Part shown: piece by piece, positions 264 to 56,362 of the stretch | Layout of the letters: every line of letters starts with the position of its first letter | Numbering within the stretch: the first letter of the stretch is position 1 | Notes under the pieces: model-generated | What the model was told of the DNA's origin: nothing | The model's input: only the letters and a program-made list of their open reading frames with translations | Databases searched by the model: none | Position numbers and translations under genes: made by a program | DNA from: Mosigvirus mar005p1 | Sequence record: OZ035759.1 | Length of the DNA: 64,000 nt | Reading direction: 5' to 3' (one strand)

Positions 264-1577
264 TCAAATAAAATGGACGTCAAAACGACCACGAGTTGTG
301 CCGACATACAATAACTGTTTAGCTAATTCTGAATCGGCATAATGGATACACGGTGTATAAACAAAGGCCGTGTCAACAGACATACCCTGGGCCTTATGGA
401 AGGTTGATACTGGTAGTGCCTTCACCTTAGTGAACATACGTTTAGCATCCCAGAATTCGCTCCATGGAGCTTTACCACCTTTATTCCAGAATTTGTATGT
501 TTCTGCGGTCTTAGCCAAAAACAAATTGAATTTATAAAGCTCTTCTTCAGAAGAAATAACCTTTATATCTTCGCGGATGTATTCTTCATCATCGCCATAT
601 GTTTCTACTGTAAGATTCCAGTATCGTATCATATACTCGCCTGAAACACCACGTGCTTTAACGAATGTAGACGTTTCTACAGCATCTCGAATACGAACGA
701 ATTGCCCGTTATTGAAAAGCATTTCGGTCATATTTTTACCATCTAGCTTATATGTCTTAGTAAATGGCTCTTGTAGAACAATGACTTCATCTTTAATAAA
801 TGGTTTTTCTGTTTCAAGAAGTTTTCGGCGAATAATTGAATTTAACTTGTCCACCGACTTATTTGTGAATGCCATCATTCGATTTTCGAAAAGGTCTTCA
901 GGAGTTTTAACGACGTTAAAATAGTTCATCATATACGATTTAAGGTCTGTATATCCATGAACGCCGTGTCCATCAACTACTTTATCGTAAATCCATTTGC
1001 CATTACGAATATCAGTCGCAACGTCAATAATTGGTGCATTGCTACGTTTAACTTCTGTAAGGTTGCATTGCACGAAGTCTTTGTGAGTGAAGAAAGGACT
1101 TAGATACGCAGTTGATTCGCCTGGGTCTACCGGTCGAATCTGGCATCGGTCACCAATTCCAATTACTGTGCACCATTTAGGGATACTAGCTAACATTATT
1201 TTAAACAGAGAACGGTCGCACATTGATGCTTCATCAAATAACAGTACACGACACAAGGCTAAGTCGGGAACCTTTTTCTGTTCAAACAATACGTTTTCTT
1301 CGTATGTAGTTGGGTTGATTTTAAGAATGCTATGAATAGTCGATGCTTCTTGACCTGCAAGTTTGCTTAGAACCTTTTTAGCTGCATGTGTAGGGGCTGC
1401 TAAAATAATACCTGATTCTCCGGCAGAAATAAGAGCTTCAACAATAAATCTAGTAAGGGTTGTTTTACCTGTACCGGCAGGCCCATTAATAGTTACGTGA
1501 TGTTTCTTTTCTTTAATAGCTTTCATAACAACGTTGAAGGCGTTTTTCTGGCCGTCAGTCAAATCATCAAATGTCAT
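264..1577 (-). CDS. dda: Dda DNA helicase (SF1B)
   Basis: 437 aa; Walker A GPAGTGKT; near-colinear with T4 Dda as recalled. Confidence 0.93.
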   Translation of the reverse strand: MTFDDLTDGQKNAFNVVMKAIKEKKHHVTINGPAGTGKTTLTRFIVEALISAGESGIILAAPTHAAKKVLSKLAGQEASTIHSILKINPTTYEENVLFEQKKVPDLALCRVLLFDEASMCDRSLFKIMLASIPKWCTVIGIGDRCQIRPVDPGESTAYLSPFFTHKDFVQCNLTEVKRSNAPIIDVATDIRNGKWIYDKVVDGHGVHGYTDLKSYMMNYFNVVKTPEDLFENRMMAFTNKSVDKLNSIIRRKLLETEKPFIKDEVIVLQEPFTKTYKLDGKNMTEMLFNNGQFVRIRDAVETSTFVKARGVSGEYMIRYWNLTVETYGDDEEYIREDIKVISSEEELYKFNLFLAKTAETYKFWNKGGKAPWSEFWDAKRMFTKVKALPVSTFHKAQGMSVDTAFVYTPCIHYADSELAKQLLYVGTTRGRFDVHFI

Positions 1578-1885
1578 CGTAAAGTCCCTGCAATTGGAAT
1601 ACTAACAATACGGCCTGTGTCCAGGATTCGTTGATACAATCTTTGCGTCCCCGCATCTAGTTTAATGTGTTTCATTTCAAGCTTATTAAACCAGAACTTA
1701 CGCGGAGTTTCGACCATTCTTAGAACTCCCATTTTTAAATCTGTTTTATACTGGGTTTTCAAAGTATCGAAAACTTTATCTGCAATATCCTTTCTAAAAA
1801 ATACTGCAGGACGATGCTCATCAAGTGGAACCGGGACAGTAAATCCTTCCATATCTCGATAAACTATTGCATATACATAAACCAT
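1574..1885 (-). CDS. hypothetical protein (dda.1 position)
   Basis: 103-aa ORF; ATGA start/stop overlap with dda. Confidence 0.55.
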   Translation of the reverse strand: MVYVYAIVYRDMEGFTVPVPLDEHRPAVFFRKDIADKVFDTLKTQYKTDLKMGVLRMVETPRKFWFNKLEMKHIKLDAGTQRLYQRILDTGRIVSIPIAGTLR

Positions 1886-1887
1886 AA

Positions 1888-2634
1888 TTAACCTTTAATC
1901 AGTTGGAATAATGATGCGCTAAGTGGTAAGCCACGTTTCAATTTTAATTTACCAATGAAACCAATCTTTTCAAAACGTTGCAGACCTTGGATAACTTTAT
2001 CATATGTATCGAAAAGCGATTCAGCGTCAGTTAATTTAGTTTTAGTTTTCCAGTCAGAGCCTTTAAGAAGAACGTTGAGTTTAGTAAGTTCATGGCCTTC
2101 TGCTTGATGTGAGCCGTTAATGCGTGCTTTCAAAGCAACAATTCTAAGTTTAGATTCGTTAGATAAAGGTTGATTTTTCATCATGTTCGCCATATGCTTA
2201 ACACGATTTTCACGTTTTGCTCGGATTTTTAAAATAGTGCCATAAACATTTTTAATTTGGGCCCATTTCTTCTCGTCGAGATTAAGTTTCTCTACTTTAC
2301 GGGCAGAAGGATTAGCAATACGTCTTGCAACAGCGTCGCGTTTCTCAATAAGTTCTTCTAATGTTAAATCAGAACGAGCCGTGTTATATTTTTTCTTAAC
2401 TGGGATAACATTACCTTTAATGTAGCCTATATCATTATTAAAACGTTCTAAGGATAATTTCTCACCTTCAACAGAGTTATTGAAAGATTCACCTGAGTAA
2501 GCGCAGACCTTTTGATCAAGAATGTTTTTAAGGTAATTAAAGTCTAAGTTAAAATCCTTAGAGCGTCTCTTCGCAGAAGCTCTGGTGTGGTCAAGACGAC
2601 GATTGATTTTGTTAATTTTATTATTTGATAACAT
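1888..2634 (-). CDS. hypothetical basic protein at the T4 srd position (possible anti-sigma Srd-like)
   Basis: 248-aa ORF; identity inferred from position only; preceded by early promoter. Confidence 0.45.
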   Translation of the reverse strand: MLSNNKINKINRRLDHTRASAKRRSKDFNLDFNYLKNILDQKVCAYSGESFNNSVEGEKLSLERFNNDIGYIKGNVIPVKKKYNTARSDLTLEELIEKRDAVARRIANPSARKVEKLNLDEKKWAQIKNVYGTILKIRAKRENRVKHMANMMKNQPLSNESKLRIVALKARINGSHQAEGHELTKLNVLLKGSDWKTKTKLTDAESLFDTYDKVIQGLQRFEKIGFIGKLKLKRGLPLSASLFQLIKG

Positions 2635-2684
2635 AATATTTTCCTCTGTCTTACGGACGTTAAGGTCATTTAGCTGATAAGCTT

Positions 2685-2712
2685 ATAATATCATGCCCTC
2701 AGGTAGTGTACA
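2685..2712 (-). promoter_or_regulatory. T4-type early promoter (-35 TGTACA, -10 TATTAT)
   Basis: Minus strand reads GTGTACA-16 nt-TATTAT upstream of the 1888..2634 gene. Confidence 0.45.
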
Positions 2713-2787
2713 CTCTTTTTTCATAAAATGCTTTAATTTTTTATGTGTTATAATGGTTCTGAGTTCCATCCGGTTATTCCAATTCAG

Positions 2788-3396
2788 TCAGTAACTGACA
2801 ATAGACAGATTCCAGATTGTATAACGTCCATCCTGAATAATAGAATCTACACGCAGTGTAGTCCCTATAGGGAGCATAAATTCACATTCGTCAGATATAA
2901 GTCTAGCATTAGACCGTCTTGTCGCTTCAGGGAAAGCTCCATTGAACTCACAAGATGGCGCAGCCAGAATCATGTTAAGCATATGTTCACGGAAGTTGAA
3001 AGCAAATGGTGCATCTTTAATGCAGAACATATTAAATGTTCCGTAAAAATTATACGAAGCAAAGTTACGTGCTACACCGAACACTGGACTAAAGCTCATT
3101 ACTCTGTCAAATTTAATAATACTACCAACGCCTTTATCGTCGAGTGTGGCCATAGTTTTCTTAGAGATTCCACGATACATTGTCTCAGGAACTGAAGAAG
3201 ACCAATTTCTACGAACAATTGCACTTAAATCTTGTTGGATGCTATCAGGCTTGTTTTCCATACACTGCCACAGTACACTTTGTTCAATGTCGCTGAATTG
3301 CTCATCGATTTTGTACTGAAGCATATCTTGATAATCTGGACATTGGGCACGACGAACCATTTCTTCAATTTCACACTCGTTATACGGCATAAACAT
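2788..3396 (-). CDS. modA: ADP-ribosyltransferase ModA-like
   Basis: 202 aa; R-S-ExE ART signature elements (YRG, ECEF); position after srd slot as in T4. Confidence 0.65.
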   Translation of the reverse strand: MFMPYNECEIEEMVRRAQCPDYQDMLQYKIDEQFSDIEQSVLWQCMENKPDSIQQDLSAIVRRNWSSSVPETMYRGISKKTMATLDDKGVGSIIKFDRVMSFSPVFGVARNFASYNFYGTFNMFCIKDAPFAFNFREHMLNMILAAPSCEFNGAFPEATRRSNARLISDECEFMLPIGTTLRVDSIIQDGRYTIWNLSIVSY

Positions 3397-3424
3397 TTTG
3401 GTTTCTCCTCTGGGTGATAGATCT

Positions 3425-3453
3425 ATAATATCATCGTCTGTAGAGTTTGTACA
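3425..3453 (-). promoter_or_regulatory. T4-type early promoter upstream of modA
   Basis: Minus strand TGTACA-17 nt-TATTAT, followed by AGGAG SD and ATG. Confidence 0.45.
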
Positions 3454-4035
3454 CTAAAAATTCAACATTTTCAAATGAATGATTTTGTATAATCGAGATA
3501 AAGGGTCATATTCTAAGTCTTCAATTTCCACAATCTCAAATCTAGAGATACCTGAGACCATGTACTCTTGTTCAGATTCAATCATATCTAGGACGTCAAC
3601 ACGCGTTTCTTCCATAACATGCTTAGGGTTCTTTCCGGCGAGTACAATGTTAACCATGTTTTGGTAGTAATCAAAAATGAACGGAGCATTCCTGAGACTA
3701 AGAATAGTGTACGTCTGATATTCCCATCTCCCAGAGAATTGACGAGCTGTACTGAAATCAGTTGTGAACGATGTTACTCGTCCAGGAGACCAATGGCATC
3801 CAACAGAAAGAAGTGAAAGACGTTCTACTTCTTCTGGAGTTACACCGCGGTAGAGTTCTACTGGTACTGTAGAAGTCATATGCTTACGAACAAGATGGTC
3901 TAATTCATAGTGGAAATCCGGGTCTTCCTTAGAATCGGTGCAAGCCCAGAGAATGTTTTGTTCTTGGCGGGTGAATTTGCTATCAATCAGATTTGTTAGG
4001 TATTCGCGTTCTTGAAGTTCAGATTGACATGTCAT
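3454..4035 (-). CDS. modB: ADP-ribosyltransferase ModB-like
   Basis: 193 aa; YRG...STAR...ESEQE motifs; paralogue of adjacent modA. Confidence 0.65.
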   Translation of the reverse strand: MTCQSELQEREYLTNLIDSKFTRQEQNILWACTDSKEDPDFHYELDHLVRKHMTSTVPVELYRGVTPEEVERLSLLSVGCHWSPGRVTSFTTDFSTARQFSGRWEYQTYTILSLRNAPFIFDYYQNMVNIVLAGKNPKHVMEETRVDVLDMIESEQEYMVSGISRFEIVEIEDLEYDPLSRLYKIIHLKMLNF

Positions 4036-4062
4036 GATAGACCTCCATTTAAAGATAAGCCT

Positions 4063-4091
4063 ATCATAACACGAGAGGAGGGAATGTAAAC
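4063..4091 (-). promoter_or_regulatory. T4-type early promoter upstream of modB
   Basis: Minus strand GTTTACA-16 nt-TATGAT, then SD and ATG at 4035. Confidence 0.55.
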
Positions 4092-4255
4092 TATTTTTTA
4101 AGCTTTCCTACTAAAGGTCCATCAGGGCCAGGTTGTTCTAACATGAATAACGATGCTTTAAAAAGCAATGTCAACCCTTTCACCATTCGATACCATGTCT
4201 CAAAGTCTTTTTCCTTGATTTCTAGTAAGAATTTCTCTTTAAATTTCTCTTTCAT
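4091..4255 (-). CDS. small hypothetical protein (54 aa)
   Basis: ORF below the 60-aa track threshold; ATGA overlap with upstream ORF suggests translational coupling. Confidence 0.3.
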   Translation of the reverse strand: MKEKFKEKFLLEIKEKDFETWYRMVKGLTLLFKASLFMLEQPGPDGPLVGKLKK

Positions 4256-4440
4256 TTCCAAGGACTCCATGGTGGAGGGTCGTCATAATAAGACGCTAGG
4301 TCTTTCAGGACTTCTAACGGTAAACTAAAACCATGACGTTGTATAATATTACCAATTTCATTGACAAGTTCACCACGTTGTTCTTTAGGAGCCTCAACTT
4401 CGGACTCATCAAACATACTCATCAAGTCCATATTATTCAC
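4252..4440 (-). CDS. hypothetical protein
   Basis: 62-aa ORF, start overlaps stop of upstream gene. Confidence 0.45.
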   Translation of the reverse strand: MNNMDLMSMFDESEVEAPKEQRGELVNEIGNIIQRHGFSLPLEVLKDLASYYDDPPPWSPWK

Positions 4441-4897
4441 CGAGATAAAAACTAGCCGGTTCAGAGAATGTTTCTAGTGCTACACCTTTTGTCTTAAAAA
4501 ATTTCCAAATAGCTCGTTGCAAATGGATTAAATCTGCTAATGATGTAATAAAGTATTTTTTGGCAAAATACGTATGGTCTCGCTTTTCAAACAGGTCTAA
4601 ACGCTTTTCAGGATTCACATAAACGGCATTTTCTGTAGATTCATACCCTAAGTCCTTTATGCCTTCTTCAAGACTAAACGGAGAATTTTTAGAATGAGTA
4701 ATAGCTCCAACTCGCTCTACACGAATTTTGTAACCTTTAGGAATCTGCAATTTGCAGAATTCTTCTACGATATATTGCGGATTATTTAGACTTTTGTTAA
4801 TGAGAATAGCTATTTCTAGTGGAGTCTTATCTTCCACTGGTATATGTTTAAATGACTTGGCTTCAAGCAAATACATTTTAAATAGCATAGCATCCAT
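4433..4897 (-). CDS. hypothetical protein (T4 mrh-region position)
   Basis: 154-aa ORF in operon context. Confidence 0.55.
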   Translation of the reverse strand: MDAMLFKMYLLEAKSFKHIPVEDKTPLEIAILINKSLNNPQYIVEEFCKLQIPKGYKIRVERVGAITHSKNSPFSLEEGIKDLGYESTENAVYVNPEKRLDLFEKRDHTYFAKKYFITSLADLIHLQRAIWKFFKTKGVALETFSEPASFYLGE

Positions 4898-5076
4898 TAT
4901 AATTTCCTCGATGGTTCACCCATATAAAGTTTTACAATACGTTCGCCTTCATCTTCGACGAGCTTCTCTTCATGTTTCTGGAATTCTTTAGCCATATTCT
5001 CTTCAAGAACATCCAGCCAATCTTCTGGTCCGACACCATCATTCCAGCTTTTAAACCATTTTACTATTCTGTTCAT
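4897..5076 (-). CDS. small hypothetical protein (59 aa)
   Basis: ORF just below track threshold; ATGA overlap with upstream gene, TAATG overlap with downstream gene. Confidence 0.4.
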   Translation of the reverse strand: MNRIVKWFKSWNDGVGPEDWLDVLEENMAKEFQKHEEKLVEDEGERIVKLYMGEPSRKL

Positions 5077-36144: not shown

Positions 36145-36615
36145 TTAATCATGTTTCCACACCCCATCGGTATTTGACCAAAGTCGCTGGTTATCTGATC
36201 CTCGCCACAGCTTTTTAGTCGGAAGATTTTTCTCATACTTCCCATCAATAATAACATCAACATATTTAAGCATTTCTAGTTGTTTAATATCTTCAAACTT
36301 ATATCCTGTCCACAACCAAATGCTTTTATTTGGATAAAGATTTTTTACTGTTTGAACAATGCAATGAATAACATCTCGGTTATCAGGATAGAGAGGGTCA
36401 CCTCCGGTTATAGTCAATCCTTCTATATAATCATTATTCAAACATTCAATTAATTGTTCTAGTGTCTCTCTAGTGAATGGAACACCATTTCTAGCATTCC
36501 ATGTTGATTTATTATAACACCCTTCGCATTTATGCAAACAACCCGTAACGAAAAGAACGACCCTGCATCCGGGGCCATTCACAAAATCGCAAGGATAAAA
36601 TCTATCATAATTCAT
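36145..36615 (-). CDS. nrdG: Anaerobic ribonucleotide reductase activating protein NrdG (radical SAM)
   Basis: 156 aa; Cys-rich radical-SAM region GCLHKCEGCYN; directly downstream of nrdD. Confidence 0.85.
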   Translation of the reverse strand: MNYDRFYPCDFVNGPGCRVVLFVTGCLHKCEGCYNKSTWNARNGVPFTRETLEQLIECLNNDYIEGLTITGGDPLYPDNRDVIHCIVQTVKNLYPNKSIWLWTGYKFEDIKQLEMLKYVDVIIDGKYEKNLPTKKLWRGSDNQRLWSNTDGVWKHD

Positions 36616-38429
36616 TGGTGTTTAACCCTATGCATGATTTCTTTATTTTTACCGAGATTAAATCCGCGTTCGTTCGGATTTCCCAAATAACCGCATGTTC
36701 TTCTTATGGTGTTCATCTTTTTAGGATCAGTTTCTCCGCAAACTGAACAAACAAATCCGTTTTCAGTAGGAGTCATTTCATGGGTACTTCCGCATGTAAA
36801 ACATTTATCTACTGGCATATTAACACCAAAATAATCTAAATGTTGTGCAGCATAATCCCATACAGCCTCAAGGCCCTTTAAGTTATTTTTCATATCAGGA
36901 AGTTCAACATAAGAAATGTGACCACCTGTCGCAATGAAATGATATGGCGCTTCACGAGAAATCTTTTCAAACGGAGTAATATTTTCTTCTACTGAAACAT
37001 GGAAACTGTTAGTGTACCAGCCTTTATCGGTAACATCCTTTACATTTCCGTATTTTTCTGTATCGAGTTTACAGAAGCGATAACAAAGGTTTTCAGCAGG
37101 AGTAGAATATAAACTAAAAGCAAATCCGGTTCTTTCAGTCCACTGTTTAAGATGAGCATTCATTTTAGTTAAAATTTCTTGTCCAATATCACGACCGACA
37201 AGAATATTCAATTCGTGAATACCAATGTATCCCAAAGACACTGAACTTCTACCATTTTTAAATAACTCAATTATGTCATCATCAGGTTTAAGACGAACCC
37301 CGAATGCACCTTCTTGGTAAAGAATAGGAGCAACAGTAGCTTTAACTCCTTTTAAGGAACTAATTCTACACATCAAGGCTTCAAAACACAGATCCATTCG
37401 TTCATTAAATAGCTCAACAAATTTCTGTTCATTGAACTGTGTTCCAATATAAGAATCTAATGCGATGCGAGGAAGATTCAGTGTTACAACGCCAAGATTA
37501 TTACGTCCATCAAGAATTTCATTACCAGTCGAATCTTTCCATACGCTCAAGAAACTACGGCAGCCCATTGGAGAAACTGGAACTGAAGAACCGGTAATAG
37601 CTTTATTATTCTTAACCGAAATAATGTCAGGATACATTCTTTTGCTTGCACATTCTAACGCAAGTTGTTTAATATCATAGTTCGGATCGTCTTTATAAAG
37701 ATTAACACCTTCTTCAACGAACATAACAAGCTTAGGGAAAATAGGAGTTATTCCATCACGACCAAGACCTTTAATGCGGTTTTTAAGAATTGCCTTCTGA
37801 ATCATTCGTTCAGTCCAATCGGTTCCCGTACCAAATGTAATTGTTACAAAAGGAGTTTGTCCGTTTGAACTAAAGAGAGTATTTACTTCATATTCATAAG
37901 CTTGGAATGCGTCATAGACATCTTTTTCTGTTTTAGATTGAGCATAATTCAGAATGTCTGGTATTTGCCATTTTTCTGCATCTTCAACATGTTTAGCGTA
38001 TGTGCGTTTAACATAAGGAGAAAGAACTTTATCTACATTAGCAAAAGTCGTTCCGCCGTATTGATGGGAAGCAACCTGTGCAGTAATTTGTGCCATAATT
38101 GCAGTAGCAACACCGATTGATTTAGGAGTTTCAATCTGTGCATTACCAAGCTTAAATCCATTCTCAAGCATCCCCTTTAAATCTACTAAACAGCAATTAG
38201 TAAAAGGAAGAGCAGGGGAATAATCAATATCGTGCACGTGAATAATTCCGCTTTCATGCGCTTTCATAATAAAAGACGGGACCATATTTTTGGCAATGTG
38301 TTTAGACACAATACCAGCCATAAGGTCCCGTTGAGTTGGAAAAACACGAGAATCTTTATTAGCATTCTCGTTTAAAAGGTCTTTATTAGTTTTATGAATT
38401 AATCCTTCAATTTCTTTTTCAATTGTCAT
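36612..38429 (-). CDS. nrdD: Anaerobic ribonucleoside-triphosphate reductase NrdD
   Basis: 605 aa; C-terminal glycyl-radical motif RRTCGYLG and Zn-ribbon CFTCGS...CSVCG. Confidence 0.92.
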   Translation of the reverse strand: MTIEKEIEGLIHKTNKDLLNENANKDSRVFPTQRDLMAGIVSKHIAKNMVPSFIMKAHESGIIHVHDIDYSPALPFTNCCLVDLKGMLENGFKLGNAQIETPKSIGVATAIMAQITAQVASHQYGGTTFANVDKVLSPYVKRTYAKHVEDAEKWQIPDILNYAQSKTEKDVYDAFQAYEYEVNTLFSSNGQTPFVTITFGTGTDWTERMIQKAILKNRIKGLGRDGITPIFPKLVMFVEEGVNLYKDDPNYDIKQLALECASKRMYPDIISVKNNKAITGSSVPVSPMGCRSFLSVWKDSTGNEILDGRNNLGVVTLNLPRIALDSYIGTQFNEQKFVELFNERMDLCFEALMCRISSLKGVKATVAPILYQEGAFGVRLKPDDDIIELFKNGRSSVSLGYIGIHELNILVGRDIGQEILTKMNAHLKQWTERTGFAFSLYSTPAENLCYRFCKLDTEKYGNVKDVTDKGWYTNSFHVSVEENITPFEKISREAPYHFIATGGHISYVELPDMKNNLKGLEAVWDYAAQHLDYFGVNMPVDKCFTCGSTHEMTPTENGFVCSVCGETDPKKMNTIRRTCGYLGNPNERGFNLGKNKEIMHRVKHQ

Positions 38430-51401: not shown

Positions 51402-51940
51402 TCTTTTATTTCCAGTAGTTTATTTGATTTAAGGTAATTAGCCTTTTCTAGGACTTCAGAAGCATATTTACTTCCAGCACTTGTCTTCCATCCCGCATTA
51501 TATGAGGATATAGCTTTTCTTATATCCCCGTTATGTATATTTAACCAATAAGAAAATTCGATATAAGCCCATCTGGCTGAATTAGACCGCTTAGATAGCA
51601 TTTTCTTAATTTGGGCATCAGTCATATTATAACCAAGCTGGTTAATTCTTGCCCTCATTGTTGGTAGATAGTTTTGGAACATTCCATACGCATGGTGACC
51701 TTTCTTATCTTTAAGATTAACACCGGCAGATGATTCTTGCCATAGTATTGCGGCCATTATGTATCCAAGTCCTTTCTTATGCATATTTTCATGCGTTTTA
51801 AATTTTCCGTCCTTAGAAAACTGTTCCCCAAACTGATAAGCATAATTCAAGTTATCGAGTTGGACATTACTAAAAGTATGCTCGGAGCTATGTGCTGATA
51901 ATGAAAGAGCAAATAGACCAGCGAGTAGTGCTTTTCTCAT
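51398..51940 (-). CDS. periplasmic protein, lytic-transglycosylase-like
   Basis: 180 aa; signal peptide; ILWQESSAG / HAYGMFQ motifs reminiscent of SLT domain. Confidence 0.45.
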   Translation of the reverse strand: MRKALLAGLFALSLSAHSSEHTFSNVQLDNLNYAYQFGEQFSKDGKFKTHENMHKKGLGYIMAAILWQESSAGVNLKDKKGHHAYGMFQNYLPTMRARINQLGYNMTDAQIKKMLSKRSNSARWAYIEFSYWLNIHNGDIRKAISSYNAGWKTSAGSKYASEVLEKANYLKSNKLLEIKE

Positions 51941-51948
51941 GTTTACCT

Positions 51949-52407
51949 CTAGATTTTAATCACTGCTTTAGAAGCTTTTCCTGGTAGTCGTTTACTGTTA
52001 ATAATAGCCATTCTGCATTGAAGAGTCTTCATTTTGAATGCTGGATTTTCGCGACAAACTGTAAGTCCTAACCAAAGATTTCCATCAGTTATTTCTAAAC
52101 GGCCTGGGCGGTATTCGACACCTTCGACAAAATCTTCATCAACGTCTGGACGTGCCGGCATTGATAAAAATTCTGTAACTTCTTTAACATGATTTTTTAC
52201 TTTATGAAATAATTCAAAAACGTAATTCTCATCTATTTCTCTCTGGATGGCACGATCTAAGAGATGTTGAGAATACTTGATATGAAAGCCTGGTAGTCCA
52301 AGAGACTTTGCAGCATCTTTTATACCGGCATTTATTTTGCGGAACTCCGTTTCAAAGATTCGACGGAGTTTATTACGGCGGATAAAAACTTCCGAATTGA
52401 TAGTCAT
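51949..52407 (-). CDS. regB: Sequence-specific endoribonuclease RegB
   Basis: 152 aa; near-colinear with T4 RegB as recalled (YSQHLLDRAIQREIDE...LQCRMAIINS.RLPGKASKAVIK). Confidence 0.88.
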   Translation of the reverse strand: MTINSEVFIRRNKLRRIFETEFRKINAGIKDAAKSLGLPGFHIKYSQHLLDRAIQREIDENYVFELFHKVKNHVKEVTEFLSMPARPDVDEDFVEGVEYRPGRLEITDGNLWLGLTVCRENPAFKMKTLQCRMAIINSKRLPGKASKAVIKI

Positions 52408-52435
52408 TTTGATTTCTCCTCTAGTTGACAGATCT

Positions 52436-52464
52436 ATAGTAACACAACTAGAGGAGAAGTAAAC
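52436..52464 (-). promoter_or_regulatory. T4-type early promoter upstream of regB
   Basis: Minus strand GTTTACTTCTCC...17 nt...TACTAT, then GAGGAGAAAT SD. Confidence 0.55.
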
Positions 52465-52805
52465 TACTCTTTGAAAGGAATTAACTTTTTAACTGCTTTA
52501 GATACTTCGTCACGAACCTGGTGGAAGTTCTTGAGCTGTTCAAGGCGTTGTTCGTAATACGCAATCTCATCTTCTTCAAGACAATCGTCAGCGTCTTCTT
52601 TCAGATATGCCTTGTACTCATTAAAGAGGGCCCATAGGCGGTTCTCAAAGTCATCAAGGCTTTGAATTTTCTTGTGCTTCGGAACAAGGCCAAAAGGATT
52701 GCTTTCAGTTATGCGTCGAGATGCTTCATAATGAGTTCCAAAGCCTGATAGGATTTGAGCCATTAGTATTTTTCCTCTGGTTGAAATACCGCACGACAAG
52801 CCCAC
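52464..52805 (-). CDS. hypothetical protein
   Basis: 113-aa ORF. Confidence 0.5.
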
Positions 52806-53008
52806 ATACTAGCTTCCTTTAGGCGTTCTTTAGCACAGTTCAATTGGGACAAAGCTGTCAAAGCTTCAGGAGTATTCGCAGACAACGCTTCTTCCGCCAA
52901 GGCATCGAAAATAAGCCCTAATCGAACTTCTGCATCTTTAATAGCGTTCACTTTACCGATTTTATCATCGGTATGCGGCTTGTAGCCTTTGATGTCTTCA
53001 ATCGACAT
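52763..53008 (-). CDS. hypothetical protein
   Basis: Track ORF 52763..53176 trimmed to ATG with GAGGAAA SD. Confidence 0.4.
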
Positions 53009-53222
53009 AAGGAATTTCCTCATCGGTGGCAAGGTCATATTCGACCAATTGGATAGGCTCATTAATACCATATCCACGTACAGTGATATCAGTTGTCGGA
53101 TAGTTTCCAGTAATATCACCCATTCTAAATGCTTCAGTGAATGATTGCTCTCCAGAGCAACTAAACCAGGCGGCAAAACATTTTAAAACATCTTCAGACC
53201 CTTCTATAATCAATTTAGCCAT
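52998..53222 (-). CDS. hypothetical acidic protein
   Basis: 74-aa ORF. Confidence 0.45.
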   Translation of the reverse strand: MAKLIIEGSEDVLKCFAAWFSCSGEQSFTEAFRMGDITGNYPTTDITVRGYGINEPIQLVEYDLATDEEIPYVD

Positions 53223-53584
53223 TATAGACTCTCAGTAAAGGTACGAGCGATAACGTCGCGCTGCTGTTCCGGAGTCAGAGAGTTAAAGCGAACTGCATAA
53301 CCGGATACACGGATGGTCAGCTGCGGATATTTTTCCGGATGCTTAACTGCATCTTCTAGAGTTTCACGACGCAGAACGTTAACGTTCAGGTGTTGACCAC
53401 CTTCAATTTTAACTTTAGGTTGACGTTCAATTTCAATTTCACGGGCATGCAAACCGTAGAAAATTTCCGGGTCTACAATAGCGTCTTCTTTAAAAGTCTT
53501 AGAGACAATAATCCGGGCTTGAGTACCGTCTTCAAAATAAATAGTGCCTTTATGTGCACCTTCAAGAATTTGATATGCTTTCAT
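53222..53584 (-). CDS. grcA: autonomous glycyl-radical cofactor (GrcA/YfiD-like)
   Basis: 120 aa; C-terminal ~60 aa ([60 protein letters not shown]) essentially identical to enterobacterial GrcA/PflB glycyl-radical domain as recalled. Confidence 0.85.
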
Positions 53585-53590
53585 ATAACC

Positions 53591-53899
53591 TCAATTAGAA
53601 AATAAATTTATCCAAGTTTTTTCTTTAATCAAAAATGGGTCGGAATTAAACGCCATTAAACTTTGAGTGATTAATCCCTTAAATGGCCCATCAATAAATT
53701 CCATTTTGAAATGCGGAATACTAGTCATCAACCGTGCATTAGGAGCAGTACAAAGAACCTGCTGCCCTGCGAAAGGACCTTTAGTCAAACGGTATCGTTT
53801 AGGTTTAAAATGGTAAATCTCGTAATTTTCTACAAGGGCCCTTTTATTGCATACTAGGCTGTTATAACAATATTCAAAAACTTCAATAGTGGTCATCAT
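53591..53899 (-). CDS. hypothetical protein
   Basis: 102-aa ORF. Confidence 0.5.
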   Translation of the reverse strand: MMTTIEVFEYCYNSLVCNKRALVENYEIYHFKPKRYRLTKGPFAGQQVLCTAPNARLMTSIPHFKMEFIDGPFKGLITQSLMAFNSDPFLIKEKTWINLFSN

Positions 53900-54435
53900 T
53901 GCATTCCAATCACAAAAAATTGAGGACGAGCATTACCGCCGATGCAATATTTGCTTTTGCAACAGTGTTGGACTGTTTTAATATGGATGTCGTAAATCTT
54001 ATCCATATCAGGAGCTTTAATAGGCTCGTCAATTATATACAGAATACGAGAAAGCGTTAATCCACGGAATTTAGAACCTTCATTGCCAATAAAACTACGG
54101 ACAGAATCAGTAAATAAACGGAATCGAATATCGTCGCTAGAATAACGAGAAAATTCTTTTTCAATGTTGCCAGCAGAAATTTTAGCATAAGCTGAAGTAT
54201 TAGAAAGAACAATAACTGTTCCACCATCATACAGCCAATTAGCAGCAAAGTTAGTCACAGCAATTGATTTACCTGATTGTCTGCCACCGTCTAAACGAAG
54301 TGTACAGTACTGCTTGAGTACGTCTTCAAATGGTGGGACATAACCGTTCTTACAAATTTCTTCTACTCTAGCATCAGAATGGTGTGTAAAAGCATTCATC
54401 AGGGATAGATAAGGACCAGTTAAAAATGTTCTCAT
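53896..54435 (-). CDS. hypothetical P-loop-like protein
   Basis: Track ORF 53896..54504 trimmed to ATG with GAGAGAA SD; GGRQSGKS and ILYIIDEP motifs. Confidence 0.45.
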   Translation of the reverse strand: MRTFLTGPYLSLMNAFTHHSDARVEEICKNGYVPPFEDVLKQYCTLRLDGGRQSGKSIAVTNFAANWLYDGGTVIVLSNTSAYAKISAGNIEKEFSRYSSDDIRFRLFTDSVRSFIGNEGSKFRGLTLSRILYIIDEPIKAPDMDKIYDIHIKTVQHCCKSKYCIGGNARPQFFVIGMQ

Positions 54436-54606
54436 TTTATTCTCTCTAAATTTGGGCCATTCCATGGCGCATGTTAGGTCCTTCGACTCGCTATGTAAAC
54501 CCATTACCGCATTGCGCTCGACCTTATTACAGGTTGGAAAAGGTACATCACTCAGAGGACTCGACGTTCATGAGGAGAGGTTGCGTTTCCCTTTATTAGG
54601 CAAGAA

Positions 54607-54936
54607 TTATACTCTAGGCTTTTGAGCTTGTTTGGTATTGGATTCCCATGCGGCTTTGGTAATTTTGTTAGCGGCATAACCAAAGGCATTAGATAGAACA
54701 CCTTTAGAGTTGAATACATCCAATCCAATAAGTACACCGGCTGTGTTAAATTTAGGAGCAAAGTACGCATTAGTTTTAGAAAGAGCTTTTTTCAATTCAG
54801 GGTCTTGAACCAAGCCATCAAAAACGCCTTTACTATTTACTTTATATGTTACTTTGGGATTTTTACCTTCTTCGATAGCAGCTTTCTGTTCCGCAGATAA
54901 TGTAACTTCAGTGATAAACTCCTGATATGTTTTCAT
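54607..54936 (-). CDS. internal protein (capsid-targeted, CTS leader MKTYQEFITE)
   Basis: 109 aa; N-terminal MKTYQEF leader typical of T4 IPI/IPII/IPIII. Confidence 0.7.
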   Translation of the reverse strand: MKTYQEFITEVTLSAEQKAAIEEGKNPKVTYKVNSKGVFDGLVQDPELKKALSKTNAYFAPKFNTAGVLIGLDVFNSKGVLSNAFGYAANKITKAAWESNTKQAQKPRV

Positions 54937-54961
54937 TTTGTTCCTATTGATTTAATTTATG

Positions 54962-55276
54962 TTATTCTTTAGGGAAGTTTTTAGAGTATGCATCATAAAG
55001 TTTATTACCAATACGGCGGAAGACTTTAGCTGCAAAACGGTTTTCAGGGTTTTTAATCATAATTTGCATCATGTAAGTTCCTGCATCCGAAAGAGCTTCT
55101 TCATAGTACCCATTAATTTCTTTAAGAGTCCTACGTTTACCACCAGGACCATCAACAGTAATTTTCCATTTACCTGTAGAAGTGCGGCTCGGTGGCTCAA
55201 CTTGTTCAATCCAAATATAACCACCTTCAACGCGTTGGTTGGCGGATTCTGCAATAAATTCTTTATACGTTTTCAT
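54962..55276 (-). CDS. internal protein (CTS leader MKTYKEFIAE)
   Basis: 104 aa; same leader family. Confidence 0.7.
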   Translation of the reverse strand: MKTYKEFIAESANQRVEGGYIWIEQVEPPSRTSTGKWKITVDGPGGKRRTLKEINGYYEEALSDAGTYMMQIMIKNPENRFAAKVFRRIGNKLYDAYSKNFPKE

Positions 55277-55340
55277 TTTTTGTTTCCTTGTTTGTTTTGA
55301 TAGAGTAATTATACCATATTAATACTTAAGCGTAAACAAT

Positions 55341-55601
55341 TTAAGCTTTACCGCCAGAAATAATTCCGAAGTTGTTAAAATCATATCCAATATCGTCAAC
55401 ATCTACTTTAGGGCTTGCTACAACATAAGCAATTTCACTACGTTTTGCATAGGTGTTGATTTCTTTACCATCGCCACCTAAGAAAGAATACCCATTACGT
55501 TTTAATGAGCCAAAGTCTTCGGCATCACCAACGAAAGCTTTAACTTTAAATTTAGGACCTTTGGCAACTGCTTCAGCGATAAATTCTTGATACATTTTCA
55601 T
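55341..55601 (-). CDS. internal protein (CTS leader MKMYQEFIAE)
   Basis: Track ORF 55341..55667 trimmed to MKMYQEFIAEA. Confidence 0.6.
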   Translation of the reverse strand: MKMYQEFIAEAVAKGPKFKVKAFVGDAEDFGSLKRNGYSFLGGDGKEINTYAKRSEIAYVVASPKVDVDDIGYDFNNFGIISGGKA

Positions 55602-55608
55602 TTTTTCC

Positions 55609-56022
55609 TTAGTAAATTGATTTACCATAGTATTTGTACCAAGTCGGACGTTGAGCAATTTTTTCATCTAAGCGTGCTTGACTTATCGCAATAGACGCTT
55701 CAGACGGGACATAATTATTACGAAATTCGACAGGGATGTCGGAAATATCCTGGACTGACGTGTCCTTGATTTTGAAACCACGTTTCAAACATTCAGCGAT
55801 TAGCTCGATTTGTCGTAAACGTAAAAATTCGAGTTTGTCGTAAAAGAATGTTACGTGACCTGTGCCTAAGATAAATGTTGGAGAGATTTTAAAATCCTTT
55901 ACACGTTTACCGTTTTGAACATGTTTACGGACTGCACCAAATACGCGTGGTAATTCACGATACTCAGCCATAAGATGTTGGTCGGTCAGTTCAGAAACAA
56001 GTGTTAAATTGATACGAGTCAT
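55609..56022 (-). CDS. denV: Endonuclease V (pyrimidine-dimer DNA glycosylase DenV)
   Basis: Trimmed to [12 protein letters not shown]...; near-identical to T4 endo V as recalled. Confidence 0.92.
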
Positions 56023-56049
56023 AATTTCCTCCAAGTAGTTGATAGATGT

Positions 56050-56079
56050 ATAGTATCAAAGTCCTTGGAGGAAGTAAAC
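56050..56079 (-). promoter_or_regulatory. T4-type early promoter upstream of denV
   Basis: Minus strand GTTTACTTCCTCC...18 nt...TACTAT. Confidence 0.5.
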
Positions 56080-56080
56080 A

Positions 56081-56362
56081 CTATTTTTCTGAAGCGCCTG
56101 AAATATATTTTTCAAGACGTTGTTTCATCAGCGAGCCGTTCTTAGCGATTTCTTCCGGTTTATCGCACATACGTAACAAGGCTTCAAGCTTAGCGATATC
56201 GCTGGTACGTTCAAATTTGCGAGTATCTATCTTACTAGCAAGTTCAGAAATACGTGCTAGTAGACTTTCGGCTTCAACCAAAGCTGCACCTAGCTTAGTT
56301 GCAAATGTGTCAGTAGCTTCGTTAAGAATAGATTCTGATAAAAATTCACTATATGTTTTCAT
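56081..56362 (-). CDS. internal protein (CTS leader [10 protein letters not shown])
   Basis: Track ORF 56081..56377 trimmed to MKTYSEF. Confidence 0.6.

Follow-up and report, generated by a model that had tools for sequence, protein, structure and literature searches.

The vs.6-type gene of Mosigvirus mar005p1, a phage GrcA homolog with a 3' tract closely similar to Escherichia coli grcA

Only two spare-part proteins that restore pyruvate formate-lyase (PFL) after its cleavage by oxygen have been validated, namely YfiD (GrcA) from Escherichia coli and the Y06I protein of phage T4; both do so after radical installation by the PFL activating enzyme, PFL-AE (PMC8683613, citing Wagner et al. 2001). 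A protein of the GrcA type binds PFL that is devoid of a working radical domain. PflA then places the radical on G102, from where it passes to Cys419 of PflB, and catalysis is regained (PMC8683613, PMC12338860). The glycines G102 in GrcA and G734 in PflB are named as the radical sites, and GrcA rescues the variant PflB-G734A in vivo (PMC12338860). According to nuclear magnetic resonance (NMR) data residues 1-60 of free YfiD are disordered; without them radical installation is about fourfold lower and measurable binding to cleaved PFL is abolished (PMC8683613). Here we analyze a gene of this type from Mosigvirus mar005p1 (sequence record OZ035759.1). The window, i.e. the whole stretch of DNA that was analyzed, has 64,000 nucleotides, and the gene is the complete open reading frame (ORF) at 53222..53584 on the minus strand, which starts with ATG and encodes 120 amino acids followed by a TAA stop. 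This ORF is the ortholog of T4 vs.6. We consider it probable that its product is an autonomous phage glycyl radical cofactor similar to GrcA (YfiD), that it serves in the repair of PFL, and that the gene has evolved as a mosaic of phage and host DNA.

Relationship to Vs.6 of T4 and to GrcA of E. coli

The protein is identical to T4 Vs.6 (NP_049730) in 113 of 120 positions (94%). Like the window protein, Vs.6 has 120 amino acids and belongs to phrog_1209 in PHROG, a family that the window protein matches over residues 1-120 (E=1.3e-62). Six of the seven substitutions are located in the 5' half of the gene, and the remaining one is R73 in the window against H73 in T4. The gene order regB-vs.3-vs.4-vs.5-vs.6-vs.7-vs.8-denV is also common to T4 and the window. 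Searches against family models gave matches to Pfam Gly_radical (PF01228; residues 60-101, E=2.4e-18) and to the NCBIfam model for GrcA (TIGR04365; residues 18-120, E=1.4e-46, 157.9 bits). Members of this family are small stand-alone proteins of about 14 kDa; the ORF product, with its 120 amino acids and a C-terminal half that constitutes the Gly_radical domain, is a protein of this kind. We infer that Y06I of Wagner et al. 2001 (BBRC 285:456) is the product of vs.6, because the sizes are similar (about 14 kDa) and because vs.6 is the T4 gene that RefSeq annotates as GrcA.

A tblastn search found homologs in 1,588 phage records, including T4-like phages of Escherichia, Klebsiella, Salmonella, Aeromonas and others as well as the T5-like Demerecviridae; a protein search added jumbo phages, e.g. 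K64-1. An intact full-length ORF is kept in 1,532 of the 1,588 records. An older comparative study counted vs.6 among the ORFs that T4-like phages have in common, with the guess that it acts in nucleotide metabolism (PMC1524935). Thus neither the gene nor what it does biochemically is new, and it is widely annotated, in many records as GrcA, albeit under inconsistent names. The first-pass annotation, a reading of the letters of the window only, had presented the gene as a horizontally acquired spare part; since it is a well-known member of the T4 family, this acquisition is not new to the window phage. In the T5-like Salmonella phage Stitch (locus 3001..3369) and in Aeromonas phage 44RR2.8t.2 (locus 2498..2866) the homolog is labelled 'ribonucleotide reductase subunit' or 'pyruvate formate-lyase', and it is found in or beside a cluster of tRNA genes and not between regB and denV. 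In other records the label is '2-ketobutyrate formate-lyase', 'acetyltransferase' or 'hypothetical protein'.

A BLASTP comparison with GrcA from an E. coli chromosome gave 74 identities over 100 positions (E=7e-53). These are distributed very unevenly over the two halves. In a codon alignment all 60 residues from 61 to 120 are identical to residues 68-127 of E. coli GrcA (YfiD, UniProt P68066), so that the structured radical domains of the two proteins are the same; the phage protein is seven residues shorter, and its gene is part of a phage gene block while E. coli grcA is located between ung and eamB. The C-terminus of PflB (PDB 1H16, residues 697-759) shares the same 13-residue radical loop and the fold, with 49 of 63 residues (78%, counted from the alignment) being identical. 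Unlike PflB, the phage protein stands alone without the catalytic barrel of roughly 690 residues, and it resembles GrcA more than PflB. The first-pass annotation had described the last 60 or so residues as an almost exact match to the domain of both host proteins. This is true of GrcA (100%) but overstated for PflB (78%). The 29-residue string that was quoted there occurs exactly at residues 92-120, and the pairwise alignments that it proposed as a check gave a high identity. The strand, which it had not given, is the minus strand.

The glycine in the motif IRVSGYAV, Gly95, aligns with Gly102 of GrcA and Gly734 of PflB. Its GGT codon at 53300..53302 (minus strand) encodes the predicted radical glycine within RVSGYAV, as read from the sequence and the alignments. 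An alignment of 50 phage and bacterial sequences contains 41 invariant columns; the window protein retains the radical glycine and all those residues of the domain that are invariant. With Foldseek the NMR structure of E. coli GrcA (6OWR) was the top and also the only significant match.

The first 60 residues of the protein have only 19 identities to E. coli GrcA. The divergence of the N-terminal half, to which the first-pass annotation had pointed, is real, but it does not mean that the two sequences are unrelated. The half aligns over its full length with that of GrcA, and intermediate forms exist among the homologs; in the 50 aligned sequences R24 is invariant, while Q5, K29 and D34 are conserved to at least 90%. 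As judged from these alignments, the N-terminal half is a diverged homolog of the N-terminal half of GrcA and not a foreign sequence. In the AlphaFold2 prediction residues 1-50 form a small beta-sheet unit, with a predicted local distance difference test (pLDDT) score of about 90, and a similar pattern of strands is predicted in E. coli GrcA (pLDDT about 85). Since the corresponding part of free YfiD is disordered, the predicted fold may represent a conformation of the bound state. A Foldseek search with the N-terminal domain returned only non-significant KOW/SH3-like resemblances (E>=0.09).

A host-like tract within the phage gene

The difference between the two halves is even more evident on the nucleotide level. 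Codons 61-117, which encode the glycyl radical domain (53234..53404, minus strand), are identical to E. coli grcA in 170 of 171 nucleotides (99.4%), and the single difference is synonymous. The identity over the 180 nucleotides of the 5' half (codons 1-60; 53405..53584, minus strand) is 50%. Estimates of synonymous (dS) and nonsynonymous (dN) divergence from E. coli grcA by the method of Nei and Gojobori gave a dS of 0.023 and a dN of 0 for the tract, as opposed to a saturated dS of 1.87 for the 5' half. Where phage and host encode the same residue, they use the same codon in 56 of 57 cases in the tract versus 10 of 19 in the 5' half (Fisher p=5.6e-6). The similarity ends just upstream of the last three codons: GAG AGT CTA, which together with the stop occupy 53222..53233 (minus strand), all differ synonymously from GAA AGC CTG in E. 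coli and are of the phage type. The identity of the 183-nt 3' stretch is highest with E. coli (97.8%), followed by another Escherichia species (96.7%), Citrobacter amalonaticus (90.7%), a Klebsiella species (85%) and Salmonella (82%). The two halves of bacterial grcA genes diverge to a similar extent; E. coli and Salmonella, for example, are 84.6% identical over the 5' half and 84.2% over the tract. The pattern is therefore not due to different rates of evolution within the gene.

The base composition and the choice of codons change at the same place. The GC content of the tract is 0.49; that of the 5' half is 0.36, with 0.23 at third codon positions (GC3), and that of the window overall is 0.37. 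The tract value is above those of all 1,082 in-frame 171-nt windows from 49 phage ORFs of the window. Four of five leucines in the tract are encoded by CTG and all three prolines by CCG, codons that account for 11% and 16%, respectively, in the phage genes; the 5' half has an AT-rich phage codon usage. When the whole 64-kb window was compared by megablast with 5,426 complete E. coli genomes, the sole match was 53214..53406, to grcA and more weakly to pflB. Together, these data indicate that the gene is a mosaic of an old phage-type 5' half and a 3' tract, about 171 nt long, which is a copy of E. coli grcA. The proposal of a horizontally acquired radical domain is in this way borne out by the DNA identity, the host-like GC content and the codon usage, the latter being the comparison with phage genes that the first-pass annotation had called for.

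Most E. coli genomes have two to three places that match the tract (grcA, pflB and presumably tdcE), and at least one genome has 21-22. Five or six of the matching places in E. coli are on plasmids, and one of these is pflB on a 262-kb record. A 276-kb replicon, which bears the label of a Klebsiella sp. WOUb02 plasmid, has a full grcA of the enterobacterial type. A second such gene, in an assembly under the name Vagococcus sp. WN89Y, appears to be due to a contaminant or a wrong label.

Zeidner et al. 2005 and Sullivan et al. 2006 reportedly described intragenic recombination between host and phage in psbA and psbD of cyanophages. That case likewise concerns a phage copy of a host metabolic gene with patches of host-like nucleotide sequence and GC content, which imply homologous recombination. 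In vs.6 we find the same sharp switch in synonymous divergence and composition within a gene, and the patch corresponds to the allele of the host species. What differs is that vs.6 belongs to an enterobacterial T-even phage and that it contains a single tract of the size of a domain. In two phage genera, which carry the alleles of their respective hosts, this tract has its beginning at one and the same codon.

The comparison with T4 provides information on the age of the tract. The window is closest to Mosigvirus, and the genome around vs.6 is only about 77% identical to that of T4. The identity rises to 85-93% in the 5' half of vs.6 and to 97-100% in the tract; the corresponding dS values are 0.41 for the 5' half and 0.024 for the tract. 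The tract is therefore younger than the split between the lineages of T4 and the window phage. The E. coli-derived tract begins at the same codon in both phages, while its 3' junction appears to be one codon apart, with GAG in the window and the host-like GAA in T4 at codon 118. This is a single site, and it hints at separate events or at a re-conversion. E. coli grcA matches 638 phage records with an identity of at least 95%, and in the matches sampled the similarity starts at nucleotides 200-205 of grcA.

The same pattern is found in phages of Klebsiella. In Klebsiella phage KMI12 (Jiaodavirus) a phage-type 5' half with a GC3 of 0.22 is followed by a tract with a GC3 of 0.59. A metagenome scan with exact patterns detected bacterial contigs with 57% GC, the GrcA of which is exactly that of Klebsiella (GRCA_KLEP7); codons 61-114 of KMI12 are identical to one such contig in 162 of 162 nucleotides. 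Cluster P0065 was also considered as a source of Klebsiella grcA and was discarded, as it only gave a contig with an E. coli-type tract (TLEDAVKH). Klebsiella grcA matches 105 records of Klebsiella and Raoultella phages at 95% or more, whereas E. coli phages reach 84-88%. The tract starts at the same codon in the E. coli-phage and the Klebsiella-phage groups, and both keep the terminal GAG ... CTA (e.g. KMI12). The fact that Klebsiella phages carry the Klebsiella allele and window-type phages the E. coli allele means that the radical domain was replaced by host DNA at least twice independently.

The shared start of the tracts is also where, on the left, conservation between the phage and the host genes sets in, as would be expected from homologous recombination confined to the region that can be aligned. 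It is no more than about seven residues away from residue 61 of YfiD, where the disordered part of that protein borders on the structured one. T-even phages degrade host DNA. The likely route of transfer is homologous recombination or gene conversion, which would have been restricted to the conserved domain. In the searchable literature we found no account of a host-to-phage conversion at vs.6; key older papers are outside this search, and an earlier mention is possible.

Klebsiella phage vB_KpnM_05F (Slopekvirus, locus 1501..1863) presents a different picture. Its last 61 codons encode a GrcA of the Klebsiella/Raoultella/Salmonella type (the LLDAVEH variant) with 61 of 61 identical amino acids, and 28-30 of these codons are synonymously different. 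This pattern would fit an old host-type copy under very strong purifying selection. On a different scale, the patches 52753..52812, 53569..53627 and 54177..54416 of the window are 92-100% identical to T4 amid surroundings with 40-80%, for example in the vs.8-like ORF and at the vs.7/vs.6 junction. They may be mosaics from recombination between phages and unrelated to the host tract.

Proposed function and alternative explanations

The mechanism that we propose follows the steps reported in vitro for T4 Y06I, which are carried over to the window protein by analogy. Oxygen would cut the PFL of the host at Gly734 and so remove its C-terminal radical domain. The 120-residue phage protein would bind to the cleaved enzyme and receive a radical on its Gly95 from host PflA, after which the repaired complex could again make acetyl-CoA and formate from pyruvate and coenzyme A. 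Infection by T-even phages shuts off the gene expression of the host, which for this reason would be unable to replace PflB or GrcA. The phage copy could hence keep the supply of fermentative adenosine triphosphate (ATP) and of formate going in micro-oxic hosts. The rescue of oxygen-damaged host PFL, which the first-pass annotation had considered, agrees with the published biochemistry of Y06I, given that the equated Vs.6 is 94% identical; in essence that annotation arrived at the interpretation of the literature. The formate produced by PFL may in addition feed NrdD, the anaerobic ribonucleotide reductase (RNR) of the phage; formate is the reductant of class III RNR (PMC4493059). This makes a metabolic link from PFL via formate to NrdD plausible. 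Selection on the gene is evident, because dN is 0 in the tract and because the 1,588 records with a homolog are spread over Straboviridae, Demerecviridae and jumbo phages.

A more far-reaching interpretation is that virulent T-even phages have in vs.6 a permanent hot spot for gene conversion by host DNA. Its radical domain would be refreshed under selection to the grcA allele of the host genus, either for compatibility with PFL and PflA or for optimal translation, and this would secure ATP and formate for NrdD during infections in the low-oxygen gut. One could extend this by assuming that NrdG activates Vs.6, for which a translationally coupled nrdG-vs.6 pair in Aeromonas phage Aeh1 gives a hint. 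We regard this interpretation as tentative and on balance rather doubtful.

Some observations speak against our view of the gene as a PFL-repair factor of the GrcA type with a mosaic history, or limit how far it can be taken. The score of the window protein is below the equivalog cutoff of 170 for TIGR04365, because the N-terminal half has diverged; by the threshold of NCBI it would be a homolog within the GrcA family but not a strict equivalog. In YfiD this half is needed for tight binding and activation, and with only 19 of 60 residues in common the affinity of the phage protein for its partners could differ. That Y06I equals vs.6 is stated in no source that could be read. In the searchable literature we found neither a mutant or infection phenotype for vs.6 nor an experiment on the window protein. 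A scan for sigma-70 promoters and terminators over 52300..56200 gave counts at chance level. With respect to recurrence, the best identity of Salmonella grcA to phage records was 83.8%. For grcA of Enterobacter sichuanensis the best match among those listed was 86.3%, with a single record in the 90-95% band. The copies from Karamvirus (Enterobacter), Slopekvirus, Citrobacter phage Miller, Krischvirus, T5-like and Aeromonas phages have a DNA identity of only 66-85% to the sampled bacterial grcA genes, although the protein is highly conserved. Since recent tracts were found for E. coli and Klebsiella alone, the conversion is episodic and need not be adaptive.

The alternatives to PFL repair differ in the partner of the protein or in the value of the gene for the phage. 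The protein could work with the anaerobic RNR of the phage, either as a spare radical domain for NrdD cleaved by oxygen or as a substrate of NrdG, instead of being a partner of PFL and PflA. The window does contain nrdG (36145..36615) and nrdD (36612..38429), both on the minus strand. The first-pass annotation had called them nearby and had suggested an interaction; both genes are present as it said, but they are 15 kb away from the vs.6-type gene and not adjacent to it. The idea gains a little from other genomes: in Aeromonas phage Aeh1 (locus 1374..4941) the order is nrdD-nrdG-vs.6-nrdC-nrdH, with vs.6 overlapping the end of nrdG by 4 nt, and vs.6 adjoins nrdG in phiAS5 as well. Such an arrangement points to an expression of vs.6 together with the activase of the anaerobic RNR in the phages concerned. 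Furthermore, both of the vs.6-carrying phage families that were examined (T4-like and T5-like) also carry nrdD, NrdG is a homolog of PflA and is even labelled pflA by some pipelines, and the role guessed in the earlier comparative paper was in nucleotide metabolism (PMC1524935). The sequences do not lend support to a direct interaction. The best BLASTP match between Vs.6 and the NrdD of the window has an E of 6 and does not cover the radical loop; the radical motifs are different (RRTCGYLG in NrdD, IRVSGYAV in Vs.6), and the domain of Vs.6 is 100% of the GrcA type and 78% of the PflB type. T4 Y06I was moreover shown to work with PFL and PFL-AE. With no similarity between the proteins and 15 kb between the genes, a role as a spare part of NrdD is unlikely, and we give an RNR partnership in either form a small chance. 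Still less probable is a decoy, in which a mimic of the PFL radical domain titrates host PflA or blocks PFL in order to shut down or redirect fermentation. Phages often carry modified mimics of host proteins, and the half that governs binding and activation in YfiD is indeed strongly diverged. But Y06I of T4 restored PFL activity in vitro, the radical glycine and the invariant residues of the domain are all intact, and an exact replacement by host sequence is expected of a working part and not of an inhibitor.

A neutral passenger, i.e. host grcA that is picked up repeatedly through homology alone and contributes nothing to fitness, is as improbable as a decoy. The lack of a reported mutant phenotype is compatible with it, and so is the fact that the tract has no more than two residues in which GrcA of E. 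coli and of Klebsiella are different, which leaves little room for host-specific adaptation. It does not explain why very different phage families keep the ORF intact in nearly all records, why a comparison of the window with T4 gives a dN/dS of about 0.11 for the 5' half, or why the position is conserved and the gene tightly packed for translation. The least probable of all, to a degree that we hardly take it into account, is that no recent transfer occurred and that one ancient acquisition was followed by extreme purifying selection or by convergence on optimal codons. The domain is certainly extremely conserved as a protein everywhere, as seen from the 41 invariant columns and from the Slopekvirus copy, which has the same amino acids in spite of 28-30 synonymous codon differences. 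The synonymous sites of the window gene, however, match those of E. coli alone (dS 0.023) and not those of Citrobacter (91%) or Salmonella (82%), which are expected to prefer broadly the same codons; those of the Klebsiella phages match Klebsiella instead. The similar rates in the two halves of bacterial grcA and the drop in dS between T4 and the window from 0.41 to 0.024 also contradict such a scenario. Assembly chimeras are implausible for more than 700 independent genomes, which include the T4 reference.

Genomic setting and significance

The gene is embedded in a run of small, tightly packed ORFs on the minus strand that extends from regB to denV, and the order of the ORFs in the window matches that of T4 and of the nearest annotated record. 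The surrounding 2.2 kb have an identity of 97.9% with Escherichia coli O157 typing phage 3 (Straboviridae, Mosigvirus), in which the ORF is annotated as grcA between regB-like genes and denV. A putative Shine-Dalgarno sequence, GAGG at 53589..53592 (minus strand), is positioned 4 nt 5' of the ATG and shares nucleotides with the TGA that ends the vs.7-like ORF upstream (53591..53899). At the other end the sequence TAATG holds the TAA of the gene and, overlapping with it, the ATG of the next one, the vs.5-like ORF at 52998..53222. The ORFs on the opposite strand, 53390..53605 (+) and 53137..53238 (+), were set aside as a side effect of the coding strand; the plus-strand ORFs in this place are short and unsupported. 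An Rfam scan of 51500..56000 found no RNA family, and ARAGORN found no tRNA gene in the whole 64-kb window. The block from regB to denV consists of early genes in T4. As far as can be judged solely from the T4 gene order, the window gene would have the same timing of expression.

The gene itself is an ordinary annotation; the less ordinary part is the unusually clean tract of host-templated DNA. The ORF is best named a vs.6-type phage GrcA, that is a biochemically characterised auxiliary metabolic gene. The E. coli tract and its mirror image in the Klebsiella phages constitute a compact natural marker for the frequency of recombination between lytic T-even phages and the chromosomes of their hosts. 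Finally, the connection from PFL via formate to NrdD offers a concrete and testable reason why enterobacterial phages may carry vs.6.

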